DNA of 64,000 nucleotides from the UHGV virus genome UHGV-1366603; one strand, given 5' to 3'. Position numbers and translations under genes: made by a program. The stretch comes from a virus. Shown in pieces: positions 38,943 through 44,322 of this stretch. Every line of letters begins with the position of its first letter. Within the stretch, counting starts at the first letter, position 1. Under the pieces are notes generated by a model that saw nothing but the letters and a program-made list of their open reading frames with translations, was not told where the DNA came from and ran no database searches.

Positions 38943-40049
38943 ATGTTAGAAAAAACGTTTGAGACAAGCGTTGTCTCTTTCCTCTCCAGACTTCCCATGC
39001 TGTTTCGTTCGCGTGCGGAGTCGATGGAGGAATTTAACTCCGTGCTCTATAATGAGCACATTACCTTAGTCGAACAAAGCCTGCTGGGTTTAGATTACCT
39101 TCCGGGAATTCTGGAGAAAATCCAAGTTTTGCTGGCAGGAAACCAACTTACTGCAATCTCACTGTTAACGGGTGTGCCTGACGTTGATATTATCGGTACG
39201 CTGGATCAAGTAAGCACTCGTCGTAGCGCACTCGATAACGCAGTGCGGAGCGGCTCACGCTTAGCAGCACTGGCAGTCGGCGAATCTTCCCGCCTAGGAT
39301 TACCATCATACGATAAAATCGGCATTGCTGTGGGTGAATGCGCCCGCCGTGTCGCACAGGAATCCAAAGGTTCCGTTACCGGCGGTAAAGCAGACCCGAT
39401 TAAACAACTGTTCGATCAGGAAGGACTGTCTAACGGGAAAATGTTCTCTGTAACGTTTGAACGTGACGGTAATAAAGTCGAACTTCCAATGCGTTTACGT
39501 TTGGACGTTAAGTCCCTTCCGACCGACCAGATTGAAACTCTGATTGCATTCAGCGACCAGACGAAAACGTTCTGGGAACGTTGGCTGCGTGCACGTGTAG
39601 GTGCACTGAGCTACGTTAAAGACATTGCGTTTTGTAACGACCTGGTAGAAGAATACCGTAAGAACCGTTATCGCGATAAGTCAGGCTACTATCGTAAGAT
39701 GATGGAGAAGAAAAACGGTAACTGGCTGTCTGGCTTGCTGACGCTGGCACCGTCTATTAATAACGCTTCTTCTGTCATGGTGGTTTCTCAAGACACTATC
39801 GACGGTCTGACTGCCCAGCTAGGCGGTGAGTTTGACGATTTCAATATTCGTCAGCGTGTCTTTAAAGACACCTTAACCGTCTATTACGTGGTAGTGGATA
39901 CCGCGTGGAACCGCGTTACTATTTATACTCGCGGTCAGAACGGTTCTCAGGAACTTGATAAATCCGATTTCAGCAAAGCGAAGTCCGGTAGCGCCGATGT
40001 GAACAAAATCATTGAAGCGTATCGCTCTGGCGCACAGCCAGTTCTTTAA
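38943..40049 (+). CDS. hypothetical protein
   Basis: agga RBS; divergent from the 37612..38916 gene across a 26-nt spacer. Confidence 0.8.
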   Translation: MLEKTFETSVVSFLSRLPMLFRSRAESMEEFNSVLYNEHITLVEQSLLGLDYLPGILEKIQVLLAGNQLTAISLLTGVPDVDIIGTLDQVSTRRSALDNAVRSGSRLAALAVGESSRLGLPSYDKIGIAVGECARRVAQESKGSVTGGKADPIKQLFDQEGLSNGKMFSVTFERDGNKVELPMRLRLDVKSLPTDQIETLIAFSDQTKTFWERWLRARVGALSYVKDIAFCNDLVEEYRKNRYRDKSGYYRKMMEKKNGNWLSGLLTLAPSINNASSVMVVSQDTIDGLTAQLGGEFDDFNIRQRVFKDTLTVYYVVVDTAWNRVTIYTRGQNGSQELDKSDFSKAKSGSADVNKIIEAYRSGAQPVL

Positions 40050-41012: not shown

Positions 41013-41573
41013 ATGTTTGAGCACGATAGTCCCGATTTTAATGTGGCTGTAGAGCGCATTAAAACCTATATGTCGATTTTATCAAAAAACCCAATCGACA
41101 CACACGATGACGAGCTTATTCACAAAACGCTGGAAGCGTGTGCGGTTGTATTACCGTACTTTCGTCTGTTAGCTGCTGACTCTGTGCAGCAGGTATTATA
41201 TGACGAATATCCGCAGGTCGGATTTACCTTTAATACGTTTTATAACGAAAGCGTAGCCTTCCTGCTTGATGGTAAACGACGCACTGTGACGTTAGGACAG
41301 TGGTCCGTATTGCTGTCGTCGTACATGAATGATGTTCGCAATACGAAGAACGTTGAACAGACGGGCTCATTGGGTGCACGTCTTCTTGCTGCTGCGTTTG
41401 GTCGCCGGGGTACTGTACGTAATATGGGTTCCGCTCACCAGTCTGTTGAGTGTAGCAAACGTCTTTTATCTTATGCAGACCATGAACTGCTGGCACGCTG
41501 GATGACACGCCCGAACGGGTTGTCCGACATGATCTCGTCGTTAGCAGTGTTTTTGAAAATCGCACGTCCCTAA
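41013..41573 (+). CDS. hypothetical protein
   Basis: taggagag RBS before ATG. Confidence 0.8.
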   Translation: MFEHDSPDFNVAVERIKTYMSILSKNPIDTHDDELIHKTLEACAVVLPYFRLLAADSVQQVLYDEYPQVGFTFNTFYNESVAFLLDGKRRTVTLGQWSVLLSSYMNDVRNTKNVEQTGSLGARLLAAAFGRRGTVRNMGSAHQSVECSKRLLSYADHELLARWMTRPNGLSDMISSLAVFLKIARP

Positions 41574-41632
41574 GGGGGCCCCTCATTCTAGGGGCGTGTA
41601 ATTGGGTTATATAACCAAAGGAAATAAACGAA

Positions 41633-42904
41633 ATGGCAAATTTCGCAAAAACTCGCGCCGCTCGTGAATCAATGGAAGCGGCCGATGAAGTAATCGACGG
41701 TATCAGCAACGTTGAACCGGCAGAAGAGAACCTGGACGTCCAGCTTGCGGACGTTGCATCTATCGACGGTCAGCTCGAACAGCTGGAAACCGACGGTGAA
41801 ACCCTGGCTGCCGATACCGAGCGTACTGAAGACGCTATCGAACAGGCGGAAGAAGCCGTTGCTAACGGTGAAGAAATGCCGGAAGAAGCGGTTGCCCTGC
41901 ATGAAGTGGCACAGGAATCCATCGCACGTCGTTGGAACCTGGAGCGTACTAAACTGGCTCGCGAATCCTATCGCCGTGGCCGTGGCATGACTGCTGCTGC
42001 GCAGGAAGGCTGGAAAGAAACCCTGAAAGGTCTTTACGAGCGTTTCATTCAGTTCTGTAAAGAAGTAATTGCGAAGATCAAAGACCTGAAACTGAAATAT
42101 TTCAACGTCGGTAAGACCGCACAGAAACGTGCGAAGAAATATCAGGAAATGATCCGCAAGCTGGGCAAACAAGATAAAGACAACATTTCTGGCGGCTTTA
42201 TCACCAAACTGTCCATCGAAGGTAAATTCGATGCTGCTGGCTCTATTGCCATTGCTAAAGAAGTGACCGCAGGTAAAGCTAAAGGTGCTATCAGTGCACT
42301 GGAAAAACAAGCTGGTGAAGCTGTGACTGCTGTTACCAAAGGTGACGATGACGCATTCAAAGCGATGCGTGGTGATCAGCCGGTTGAACTGTTTGGTAAA
42401 GCAGCGTCTAAACTGCATTCTCTGCCGAACTTTGAAAACGGCGATGCGTCTAAACTGCTGGCTCTGCCGGGCAACGCTTACGTTCAGGCTGGTACTAAAG
42501 AACTGGCTGGCGGCCACAAGTTCACCGCAATTGCGTTCATGAGCACCGGTGACGCTTCTGACGATAAAGAAGTGGCTACTCCGTCTGTTTCCGAAATGGC
42601 TGGCGCGGCATCTGCTCTGGAAGCGATCGGTAAAGGCTTCGAAGCTGTACTGAAAGATTTCCGTGCTTACGATTCTGAAATCGTGAAACTGCAACAGGCT
42701 GCTGAAAAAGCGTCCAACGCGCTGAACAACGAAAAAGACGAAAGTAAGTGGGAAGGACTGCGTAATGCACGTCAGGCCGCTGATCAGTCTGTGAAGAACT
42801 ACCAGACCCTGAACCGTGCCGTTAGCTATGTTGCTAACACCGTTATTAGCGGTCTGAACGGTTACCTGGGTGCTGGTATCGGCGCGTACAAAAAGTCTAA
42901 ATAA
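41633..42904 (+). CDS. paralog A of a tandem pair; abundant protein with acidic N-terminal region (possible processed head or internal virion protein)
   Basis: Starts MANFAKTRAARESMEA, ends GLNGYLGAGIGAYKKSK; host-optimal codon usage. Confidence 0.8.
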   Translation: MANFAKTRAARESMEAADEVIDGISNVEPAEENLDVQLADVASIDGQLEQLETDGETLAADTERTEDAIEQAEEAVANGEEMPEEAVALHEVAQESIARRWNLERTKLARESYRRGRGMTAAAQEGWKETLKGLYERFIQFCKEVIAKIKDLKLKYFNVGKTAQKRAKKYQEMIRKLGKQDKDNISGGFITKLSIEGKFDAAGSIAIAKEVTAGKAKGAISALEKQAGEAVTAVTKGDDDAFKAMRGDQPVELFGKAASKLHSLPNFENGDASKLLALPGNAYVQAGTKELAGGHKFTAIAFMSTGDASDDKEVATPSVSEMAGAASALEAIGKGFEAVLKDFRAYDSEIVKLQQAAEKASNALNNEKDESKWEGLRNARQAADQSVKNYQTLNRAVSYVANTVISGLNGYLGAGIGAYKKSK

Positions 42905-42980
42905 TTAGACTTACGCTCGTACAGTTCTTGAAATAAATCAATAGGGGAACGACGTGTTCCCCTTAGAGGAAAAGCTTAAA

Positions 42981-44243
42981 ATGGCAAATTTCGCAAAAAC
43001 TCGCGCCGCTCGTGAATCGATGGAAGCTACTGCTACTGTAGTTCCAGACGGCATCGAACTGCCAGCAGAATCTGTTGAAGGTACTCTGGCCGATATCGAA
43101 CATGATACCAAACCGATCGAAGCCCTGGACGCTGACGCTGAACTGCTGGCCGAAGACGGCGACGAAACTGATGCTCAACTGGATGTCCTGGATGAAGCTC
43201 AGGCCGCTGCCGACGGTGAAGGTGCTGGTGAAGACGGCGAAGAGCCGATGGACGCTGAAGAAGATATGCCGGACGACGCAGCGACTGCGCTGGACGTTGC
43301 TCAGGAATCTATCCGTTCTCGTTGGAACTTCGAACACCGTTCTTCCGTTGCACACGAATCCTACGGTTCTCGTAACCGTCGCCAGGTTGCTCGTGAATCC
43401 CTGTGGGAAGACATTAAAGCATTCCTGAAACGTATCTGGGAATGGCTGAAAGAACAAGGCCGTAAGATCAAAGATCGTTGGCTGAAATTCTCCAACCAGG
43501 GTAAATCCATCCAGGCTCGTTCTAAGAAATACGACGATGCTATTCGTAAACTGGGCAAACAGAAGAAAGATGAAATCTCTGGTGGCTTCATCAAGTCTCT
43601 GTCTATCGACGGTAAATTCGTTGGCGACGATCTGTCGCGCCTGAAGAATATCCTGAACCACGTCTCCACCTACTACAGTGGTAACGTTCAGAGCTTCCTG
43701 AACAACGGTACGGATATGGTTGGTAACGTCGTTAAAGGCGATGGTGCTAAAGTTGAGAAACTGAAAGCAGACTTCGCTGCTCTGGCTAAAGAAGACGTTA
43801 GCAAGTTCAAACTTGGTAACATGGCTCTGAAGATGGAGTACGACGAAGAAGGCGGATTTAGCTCCAGCTATGTGGAAGCTGAAAACCGTGCTGAAACCAA
43901 CGTGAAAACTCCGTCTGTTAGCGAACTGGCTAAGACCAATGCCTTCTTCAACGAAGTGGGTAAACAGATCGAGAAGAACGTTCTGGAATATCGTAAGACT
44001 GAACAGGCTCGCGAGAAATTCAGCCAGCAGATTGAGAAGCTGCTGAAAGAAATCGACAGCGTGAAGATCGACGAAAAACCGCAACTGACCGAATCTGTAC
44101 GTACCGCACGTCGTTACATCAACAGCATTAACCAGGCAGTGTCTCTGGGCGAGAAAGTTATTTCCTCTACTCAGAAACATCTGGCTGGCGGTCTGAACGG
44201 CTATATCTCCGCAGGTATCGCTGCTTACGAAAAATCTAAATAA
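42981..44243 (+). CDS. paralog B of the tandem pair
   Basis: Same N-terminus MANFAKTRAARESMEA and same end GLNGYISAGIAAYEKSK; track start GTG 42954, ATG 42981 with GAGGA RBS preferred. Confidence 0.8.
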   Translation: MANFAKTRAARESMEATATVVPDGIELPAESVEGTLADIEHDTKPIEALDADAELLAEDGDETDAQLDVLDEAQAAADGEGAGEDGEEPMDAEEDMPDDAATALDVAQESIRSRWNFEHRSSVAHESYGSRNRRQVARESLWEDIKAFLKRIWEWLKEQGRKIKDRWLKFSNQGKSIQARSKKYDDAIRKLGKQKKDEISGGFIKSLSIDGKFVGDDLSRLKNILNHVSTYYSGNVQSFLNNGTDMVGNVVKGDGAKVEKLKADFAALAKEDVSKFKLGNMALKMEYDEEGGFSSSYVEAENRAETNVKTPSVSELAKTNAFFNEVGKQIEKNVLEYRKTEQAREKFSQQIEKLLKEIDSVKIDEKPQLTESVRTARRYINSINQAVSLGEKVISSTQKHLAGGLNGYISAGIAAYEKSK

Positions 44244-44260
44244 TCTCTGATTGTTTAGTA

Positions 44261-44307
44261 GGAGAACCACCCTGTAATGGGGTGGTTCTCCCTTTTCTTT
44301 TTTTTTT
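44261..44307 (+). terminator. intrinsic terminator
   Basis: ggagaaccaccc-tgtaat-ggggtggttctcc hairpin followed by a T-rich run. Confidence 0.85.
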
Positions 44308-44322
44308 CGCATTAAAAATAAT

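Follow-up and report, generated by a model that had tools for sequence, protein, structure and literature searches.

Evidence for recent A-to-B gene conversion at the 5' ends of an old tandem pair of internal head protein genes in an uncultivated jumbo phage

UHGV virus genome UHGV-1366603, a stretch of 64,000 nucleotides (nt) that we refer to as the window, carries two tandem paralogous genes at positions 41,633 to 44,243, which we call gene A and gene B and whose 5' ends are almost identical. The original prediction, made from the sequence alone, had pointed to this near-identity over the first 47 nt, and the comparison of the two genes bears it out: 46 of the 47 positions are identical, and the lone difference is TCA in gene A versus TCG in gene B at codon 13. 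No comparable match was obtained in 100 shuffles. As set out below, A and B are very probably the orthologues of SPN3US gp53 and gp54 and an old pair whose 5' identity goes back to a recent A-to-B gene conversion. The genes and the features within them are as follows (aa, amino acids; pI, isoelectric point).

41633..42904, + strand: gene A, 423 aa; SPN3US gp53 orthologue, PF12699; by orthology the precursor of a high-abundance internal head/ejection protein
42981..44243, + strand: gene B, 420 aa; SPN3US gp54 orthologue, paralog family A, PF12699
42986..43026 (minimum) to 42979-43027 (maximum), + strand: probable gene-conversion tract of gene B, with gene A 41638-41678 as its donor
41633..41668, + strand: N-terminal dodecapeptide encoded by codons 1-12 of gene A (MANFAKTRAARE), with the predicted ARE-12 site at its end; putative targeting/docking peptide
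41633..42007, + strand: acidic propeptide of gene A, residues 1-125, 13.7 kDa, pI 4.25; predicted to be removed
42008-42901, + strand: predicted mature protein of gene A, 31.9 kDa, pI 9.3, basic
42981..43397, + strand: acidic propeptide of gene B, residues 1-139, 15.0 kDa, pI 4.07
43398-44240, + strand: predicted mature protein of gene B, 31.7 kDa, pI 9.4
42849..42905, + strand: 3' homology block of gene A (GLNGYLGAGIGAYKKSK plus stop), pairing with 44188-44244 (57 nt, 77%)
44188..44244, + strand: 3' homology block of gene B (GLNGYISAGIAAYEKSK plus stop), partner of the gene A 3' block

For gene B, the open reading frame (ORF) finder placed the start at GTG 42954. We adopted ATG 42981, because a Shine-Dalgarno sequence (AGAGGA) lies just 5' of it and the same start is used in all orthologues; the translation then begins MANFAKTRAARESMEA. 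Over their full length the A and B proteins are 35% identical (BLASTP E-value 2e-55), and the C-terminal motif that had been described for both, GLNGY(L/I)(G/S)AGI(G/A)AY(K/E)KSK, is indeed present in both (GLNGY..AGI.AY.KSK). A repeat search recovered the two ends of the genes as separate repeats, the first of 49 nt at 98% identity (41631-41679 versus 42979-43027) and the second of 57 nt at 77% (42849-42905 versus 44188-44244). No third copy of the 5' segment was found in the window at up to three mismatches, and a six-frame motif search gave no further protein sharing this N-terminal peptide.

Both proteins match the Pfam family PF12699 (phiKZ_IP, 'phiKZ-like phage internal head proteins'; gene A, E-value 7e-74, 249.9 bits; gene B, 4e-59, 201.3 bits; cutoff 27), with the matches covering profile positions 2-387 of 387, and both match phrog_2497, 'internal head protein' (E-values 2e-146 and 1e-119, respectively). 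The DNA around the locus is ~74-77% identical to that of the group comprising Erwinia phage Asesino, phiEaH2 and Salmonella SPN3US; we therefore assign the window to a jumbo phage that is related to these and uncultivated. IMG/VR contains contigs that are near-identical to it and others that are ~88% identical. The gene order corresponds to Asesino gp65-78 and to SPN3US gp48-54 and the genes after them, with A and B at the places of Asesino gp70/gp71 and SPN3US gp53/gp54, and the tandem pair lies 3' of the gp48-52 head-gene block in the same order in Asesino, SPN3US and ten other phages. The gene A protein is 70-74% identical to Asesino gp70 and SPN3US gp53; relative to SPN3US, the identity is 70% for gene A and about 55-60% for gene B. 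Among solved structures, no credible sequence match was found for the family (best E-value 0.025), and the inner body is unresolved in the 2026 phiKZ structural atlas. The two genes are of a known and well-characterised kind, and within this phage group they are ordinary.

The pair itself appears to be ancient. By tblastn, both copies are present in 64 of the 66 related phage records, which span the annotated genera Seoulvirus, Erskinevirus, Machinavirus, Wellingtonvirus and Derbicusvirus, and the orthologue groups split cleanly, with 55-74% identity to gene A for the A-type versus 27-35% for the B-type and with type-specific indels. Because nearly all records carry two copies and the A-type and B-type form separate orthologue groups, we conclude from these comparisons that the duplication is old; it is common to all enterobacterial relatives examined. 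In the distant Vibrio phage pVa-21, one homologue was detectable, at the end of the record; the gene at the start of that record was considered as a second copy and rejected as unrelated (hhalign probability 0.2). The original prediction had offered 'recent duplication or gene conversion' as the origin of the shared 5' end, and of these only conversion survives, since the duplicated locus is shared by the related phages and close relatives keep an unconverted gene B (see below).

The SPN3US counterparts are well described. No head proteins of SPN3US are more abundant than gp53 and gp54 ('paralog family A') and the major capsid protein; gp53 and gp54 are each present in more than 600 copies per head, are internal and are regarded as ejection proteins (PMC5694885). 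In protease-deficient SPN3US capsids a T=1 inner shell consists of them (Heymann et al. 2020, PMC7552025), and their incorporation requires gp243 (PMC5694885). The prohead protease gp245 cleaves both after A-x-E to give mature proteins of ~31 kDa, with mapped sites at ARE-12, AQE-95 and AQE-125 in gp53 and at AQE-124 and ARE-137 in gp54 (PMC10052503 Table 2). The first 15 residues of gp53 are the same as those of gp54 and have been likened to the capsid-targeting sequences of T4 (Ali et al. 2017, PMC5694885), whose authors also considered that SxE-15 might be a site of the phiKZ type (PMC5694885).

For each cleavage site mapped in SPN3US the window proteins have a counterpart, which is a conservation of sequence. 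The gene A protein has ARE-12, AQE-95 and AQE-125 at the very positions of the mapped gp53 cleavages; the gene B protein has ARE-12, AHE-126 and ARE-139, of which the last two are the counterparts of gp54 AQE-124 and ARE-137, while ARE-12 is only predicted in gp54. The residues around the sites agree with semi-tryptic peptides from SPN3US: AAQE|GWKETLK in gene A with (E)GWKETLKDLFER, and VARE|SLWEDIK in gene B with (E)SLWDDIK (PMC10052503 Fig. 3). The N-terminal motif M(A)NF-x5-ARE|S is found in both paralogs of 17/17 genomes examined. An SME-15 site is present as well. The original prediction spoke of S-x-E motifs like the sites of phiKZ, but the motif mapped in this clade is A-x-E. Both proteins are acidic in their N-terminal third, up to the last predicted cut, and basic over the remaining ~280-300 residues (pI 9.3-9.4), so the acidic N-terminal regions described earlier are there and the 'acidic middles' are not.

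The codon usage of the pair is extreme: the fraction of Escherichia coli-preferred codons, with the preferred set taken from general background, is 0.84 in A and 0.83 in B versus 0.44-0.61 in seven neighbouring genes, and A and B contain one rare codon each versus 14-37 in those neighbours. This agrees with the host-optimal codons of the original prediction, and together with the dedicated strong terminator described below it is a proxy for a high copy number in the head. The idea that they encode abundant, processed internal head proteins is likewise supported by orthology to SPN3US gp53/gp54 (PF12699, synteny; PMC5694885, PMC10052503). The grounds on which it was to be refuted do not apply: related phages keep the duplicated locus, and the orthologues are processed virion proteins.

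The origin of the near-identical 5' ends could be traced with three close uncultivated relatives, L014, L015 and L016, which differ from the window by ~12% in DNA across the locus. Their gene A has the same 5' end as that of the window, and their gene B begins with ATGGCGAATTTCTACAAAAACAAAATTGCTCGTGAGTCTATGGAGTCT, encoding MANFYKNKIARESMES. Relative to gene B of the window, L014 and L016 differ at the same 16 positions, all within nt 6-46, and L015 has the same gene B start. At 16/16 of these positions, the window gene B has the allele of an A copy: fifteen are those of the window's own gene A, and the sixteenth (nt 39, TCG) is the one in the A copies of L013-L015. Among these changes, four are synonymous. 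Both flanks of the tract are identical between the window and the relatives, with only 14-24 differences in the next 300 nt. The tract is 41-49 nt long, and the donor segment in gene A lies 1348 bp 5' of it and overlaps the codons of the dodecapeptide (41633..41668). Furthermore, L013, an independent, near-identical contig, has the same tract with an A/B match of 47/47; the window and L013 are distinct contigs with 34 differences over 2.9 kb. The 5' motif occurs exactly twice in the 151-kb contig holding L013 and once in each relative contig. As the relatives keep an unconverted gene B, all changes are toward A-copy alleles and the flanks are unchanged, we interpret the near-identity of the first 47 nt as a recent intragenomic gene conversion with A as the donor and B as the recipient, which by this comparison took place after the split from the relatives that are ~12% different in DNA. 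In the SPN3US papers searched, neither gene conversion nor concerted evolution is mentioned ('gene conversion' has 0 occurrences in PMC5694885). The base-pair-resolved demonstration of a recent A-to-B conversion and the concerted evolution confined to the termini are what is new here.

A second, independent conversion may be seen at the other end of the gene. In L014 and L015, the 3' part of gene B that corresponds to window 44200-44225 has an A-to-B tract of its own, where their gene B reads TAC CTG AGT GCT GGT ATC GGC, gene A reads TAC CTG GGT GCT GGT ATC GGT, and other B copies read TAT ATC TCC GCA GGT ATC GCT. The Ser codon thus apparently switched family from TCC to AGT by way of the GGT of gene A, followed by a G-to-A change that restored Ser.

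We then compared within-genome with between-genome A-B distances in a codon alignment of 11 non-redundant genomes. In codons 1-16 the within/between ratio is 0.50, as opposed to 0.89-1.07 in all other alignment windows, and the within-genome paralog distance (0.166) is smaller than the orthologue distance (0.313). When the A/B pairing was permuted, the N-terminal 17 columns showed 94 differences versus 170 +/- 14 (P<1e-5), with P=0.48 for the interior, P=0.001 for the last 10 columns and P=0.01 for the GLNGY block. Residues 5-9 co-vary within genomes (AKTRA/AKTRA, VKSKL/VKSKL, AQLKI/AQLKI, AQRKV/AQRKV and AQRNL/AQRNL), and several lineages lack codon 2 in A and B alike. SPN3US and SPAsTU are told apart by the same substitutions in A and in B (nt 14, 16, 19 and 25), as are SNUABM9 and L029 (nt 9, which is synonymous, and nt 20). 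Ungapped counts over nt 49-348 for gene A of the pairs Caitlin/L029 and Kwan/L023 were excluded, as indels made them invalid. Taken together, these patterns indicate that the ends of the genes evolve in concert, over the first ~9-16 codons and more weakly over the last ~10, and that the interiors evolve independently. Similar micro-conversions seem to have recurred in part in other lineages, where the concerted signal is mainly at the amino-acid level. Synonymous co-conversion was found at the four sites in the window lineage and at nt 9 in SNUABM9 versus L029, with no general within-genome excess across clades.

Two tests based on codon identity were dropped. One had compared codon identity in the variable block, at positions where the amino acids agree, with gene-wide codon usage (P=3e-5) and was withdrawn as evidence of conversion, because the between-clade control (0.76) is close to the within-genome value (0.80) and position-specific codon preference explains both. 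The other, on the NF codons (23/26 identical), is weak, as TTT is near-fixed and the Asn codon alone is informative (about 10/13). Meanwhile, two types of N-terminal peptide, ...RAARES and ...K[I/V/L]ARES, recur across clades and sometimes occur in the two paralogs of one genome (L001-L035). This recurrence hints that such peptides may have been exchanged like cassettes, both within genomes and from phage to phage.

Several points weigh against the interpretation given so far. The sequences are metagenome assemblies; an artefact is unlikely, since the tract is present in two distinct contigs and has clean flanks. Expression, virion location and cleavage are transferred here from SPN3US at 70% (A) and about 55-60% (B) protein identity and are predicted by orthology. 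At amino-acid-identical positions of the variable block, codon identity is 0.80 within genomes versus 0.76 between clades, and in the ARESxE block it is 0.42 versus 0.46; where close outgroups are lacking, the concerted signal could thus partly reflect selection for matched peptides. Finally, A and B differ clearly at the variable residues in Asesino, phiEaH2 and L014-L016. Since these phages make do with A and B peptides that differ, the N-termini need not match, which weakens the idea of two signals bound to be identical.

Other explanations of the shared 5' end have to be set against an A-to-B conversion. A recent tandem duplication, with the identical 5' ends as a remnant of the original identity, would account for two genes that lie in tandem in the same orientation, are of similar length and share both termini, but it has practically no chance of being right: the proteins are only 35% identical overall, both copies are found in the 64 of 66 records across five annotated genera, the A-type and B-type groups are distinct in their indels, the interior is without excess similarity within genomes (P=0.48), and the close relatives that have both genes have non-identical 5' ends. 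Alternatively, no DNA may have been transferred at all, and purifying selection on an N-terminal signal peptide together with codon constraints near the start codon would have kept the two ends alike, the covariation being co-adaptation to one partner. The near-invariance of NF and ARES, the stereotyped codons of the variable block (CAA, AAA and GCA everywhere; between-clade codon identity 0.76), the ARESxE block without a within-genome synonymous excess, and Machina, in which a shared Arg is AGA in one copy and CGC in the other, are all consistent with this. We nevertheless hold it to be unlikely. Independent selection would not recreate synonymous states, and this weakens it for the window lineage, where 16 clustered changes, four of them synonymous, all lead to A-copy alleles between unchanged flanks; the synonymous nt 9 changes that go with nt 20 in both paralogs of SNUABM9 versus L029, the codon-2 deletion common to both paralogs, and the 3' tract of L014/L015, which changes the Ser codon family through the GGT of gene A, speak against it as well.

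A conversion could also have had another source, or none in nature: the 5' end of gene B may have come from a co-infecting phage by recombination, or the tract may be a chimera of metagenome assembly. Phages of this kind have been described in general terms as mosaic and recombining (PMC5694885), the ..RAARES and ..K[IVL]ARES types recur in different clades, and the window and its closest relatives are all uncultivated assemblies. Yet the tract matches the resident gene A at 46/47 positions in the window and 47/47 in L013, so that the simplest donor lies 1348 bp away, and the motif occurs exactly twice in the 151-kb contig of L013 and once per relative contig. Nor would an assembler be expected to produce a 41-nt patch with perfect gene B flanks on both sides, and two distinct contigs (34 differences over 2.9 kb) share it; we consider a foreign donor or chimera quite improbable. 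The remaining alternative is that the 47 nt are a nucleic-acid element, such as a binding site for a translational regulator or a small RNA by which the two genes would be coordinated, kept by selection at the RNA level. The segment does lie where translation begins for two proteins that are co-expressed and of similar stoichiometry, and codons 2-9 are often alike in nucleotides within genomes (0-1 difference in 7/17), when the adjacent, peptide-invariant ARESxE codons carry 3-6 differences. On the other hand, its sequence varies freely between phages and in several also between A and B, the 5' untranslated regions (UTRs) of A and B are unrelated, no Rfam match was found, and neither the window nor the contig of L013 holds a third copy or an antisense partner. 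Such an element is very improbable as the cause. We therefore retain the recent intragenomic A-to-B conversion.

In the mechanism that we propose, A and B would be synthesised late in infection and in great quantity, as has been shown for SPN3US, in the form of ~45-kDa precursors, each with a short conserved N-terminal peptide, an acidic propeptide of ~125 (A) or ~139 (B) residues and a basic body of ~32 kDa. The precursors would be built into the interior of the prohead, where the prohead protease would cut at the A-x-E sites, predicted for A at ARE-12, AQE-95 and AQE-125 and for B at ARE-12, AHE-126 and ARE-139. The acidic fragments would then leave the head, and the basic mature proteins would stay with the DNA and later be ejected into the host. 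At the DNA level, the 41-49-nt tract of gene A overwrote the matching part of gene B; such tracts are about 25-50 nt long and anchored on the ~12-nt conserved motifs ATG(GCA)AAYTTY and GCNCGNGARTC. The dodecapeptide up to ARE-12 could act as a shared targeting/docking signal, where a conversion would be tolerated or even favoured. By analogy with the T4 capsid-targeting sequences this role is conceivable but tentative, and it is the least certain step of the scheme. More speculatively, and in our view rather doubtfully, both termini, the peptide up to ARE-12 and the basic C-terminal tail, might be address labels read by one common partner, with recurrent micro-conversion keeping the labels matched as the bodies diverge; candidate readers may be a gp243-like incorporation factor, the protease or a scaffold, or the inner surface of the capsid.

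The locus adds a base-pair-resolved conversion tract and evidence that only the extreme ends of the genes evolve in concert. This confinement to the termini suggests a shared role for the dodecapeptide at the N-terminus and the tail at the C-terminus. How the prohead takes up its more than 1200 gp53/gp54 copies is a question in current SPN3US work. If the termini were address labels, the dodecapeptide would be a portable capsid-targeting tag for foreign cargo in jumbo-phage heads, and the locus would be a natural system in which to measure minimal-homology recombination in nucleus-forming phages.

The closest known system is SPN3US gp53/gp54, with which the window shares the tandem pair, the syntenic block, the Pfam and PHROG families, and the layout of the proteins: an N-terminal M(A)NF-x5-ARES-x-E, an acidic propeptide, a basic body and a GLNGY..AGI.AY tail. 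The window differs in belonging to another, uncultivated lineage with ~74% DNA identity to the nearest isolates, in the variable residues of the N-terminus (AKTRA in the window, VKSKL in SPN3US), and in an identity that reaches 46/47 nt and is traceable to the A-to-B conversion tract. In phiKZ, gp93, gp94, gp95, gp162 and gp163 belong to the same Pfam family (PF12699) and are likewise multi-copy paralogs inside the head (Thomas et al. 2012, as cited in PMC5694885). The phiKZ inner-body proteins are cut by an S80-type prohead protease near the N-terminus (gp93, SLE-13) and further in (PMC5694885), and the inner body is spool-like, unlike the T=1 inner shell of the SPN3US mutant capsids (PMC7552025). 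The cleavage motif is S/A/G-x-E in phiKZ and A-x-E in the SPN3US clade; phiKZ has five copies of the gene, and their copy number per virion is lower than that of SPN3US gp53/gp54. A tblastn search gave no match between phiKZ and A or B at E<=1e-3.

A further likeness is to the internal proteins of T4. IPI, IPII and IPIII are small basic proteins that share a short N-terminal peptide, the capsid-targeting sequence (CTS), which the prohead protease cuts just after a Glu; these proteins enter the host with the DNA. A and B similarly have a short shared N-terminal peptide that ends at a protease site. They differ in that they are predicted to lose a further acidic propeptide of ~110-125 residues and in that incorporation in SPN3US also needs gp243 (PMC5694885). 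No homology to the T4 internal proteins or their CTS (Mullaney & Black 1996, cited in PMC10052503) was detected. Because the profile matches in Pfam and PHROGs are to phiKZ-type internal head families only, we regard the relation to the T4 CTS proteins as an analogy and not as membership. As for the conversion itself, short-tract gene conversion is in general recognised by a confined segment in which paralogs within a genome are closer than orthologues, with sharp borders, unconverted outgroups and synonymous sites that hitch-hike. The tract in the window has the sharp borders, the unconverted outgroups and the co-moved synonymous sites. The tracts in A and B are unusual in being very short (about 25-50 nt, with only ~11-12 nt of conserved anchor on each side) and in being confined to the two termini of otherwise saturated paralogs.

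The regions flanking the two genes contain three further features.

41556..41632, + strand: upstream region/5' UTR of gene A, with a long hairpin, a palindrome and an AAGGAA Shine-Dalgarno sequence
42943..42963, + strand: intergenic hairpin (AGGGGAAC-GACGT-GTTCCCCT), ending directly before the gene B Shine-Dalgarno sequence TAGAGGA
44261..44304, + strand: intrinsic terminator 3' of gene B, with a G+C-rich stem of 14 bp and then a T-run (-25.9 kcal/mol, z -4.95)

Upstream of gene A, a hairpin, CACGTCCCT...AGGGGCGTG, extends across the preceding gene's stop codon; the palindrome GGTTATATAACC comes next, and the AAGGAA Shine-Dalgarno sequence after that. The ~75 nt 5' of gene A are near-invariant in 12-17 relatives, out to CR5 and Phobos, in which the proteins are only ~55% identical, and the predicted fold of the region has an energy of -24.7 kcal/mol (z -1.8). 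The region could be a late promoter or an element of the 5' UTR that serves very high expression. A sigma-70-like promoter was not found at the locus and is not expected, because the phage uses its own RNA polymerases; an Rfam search of the locus returned a chance match only. The intergenic hairpin is present in 13/13 non-redundant relatives, in which the stem sequences differ and five of the six consensus pairs are kept through double changes. It is not a classical terminator, because it has no T-run on the + strand, and it may be an element of mRNA processing or stability, or a translation element that sets the A:B ratio. Since a strong terminator lies 3' of gene B and none lies between A and B, the arrangement suggests that the two genes form one transcription unit.

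Two antisense ORFs, 41669-42694 (- strand, 341 aa) and 42963-44312 (- strand, 449 aa), overlap A and B. They are almost certainly by-products of the codon bias, as the antisense frame is free of stops because the sense frame avoids TTA, CTA and TCA. The sole TCA is that of Ser13 in gene A, and the antisense ORF terminates there. Among the neighbouring genes, the one at 38943-40049 (+ strand, 368 aa), three places 5', is the counterpart of SPN3US gp50 by position and length. SPN3US gp50 is another head protein cleaved by the prohead protease, at ATE-127 (PMC10052503). The protein of the window has RRVAQE|S near residue 140, and its N-terminal SRAESMEE resembles the AARESMEA of A and B.

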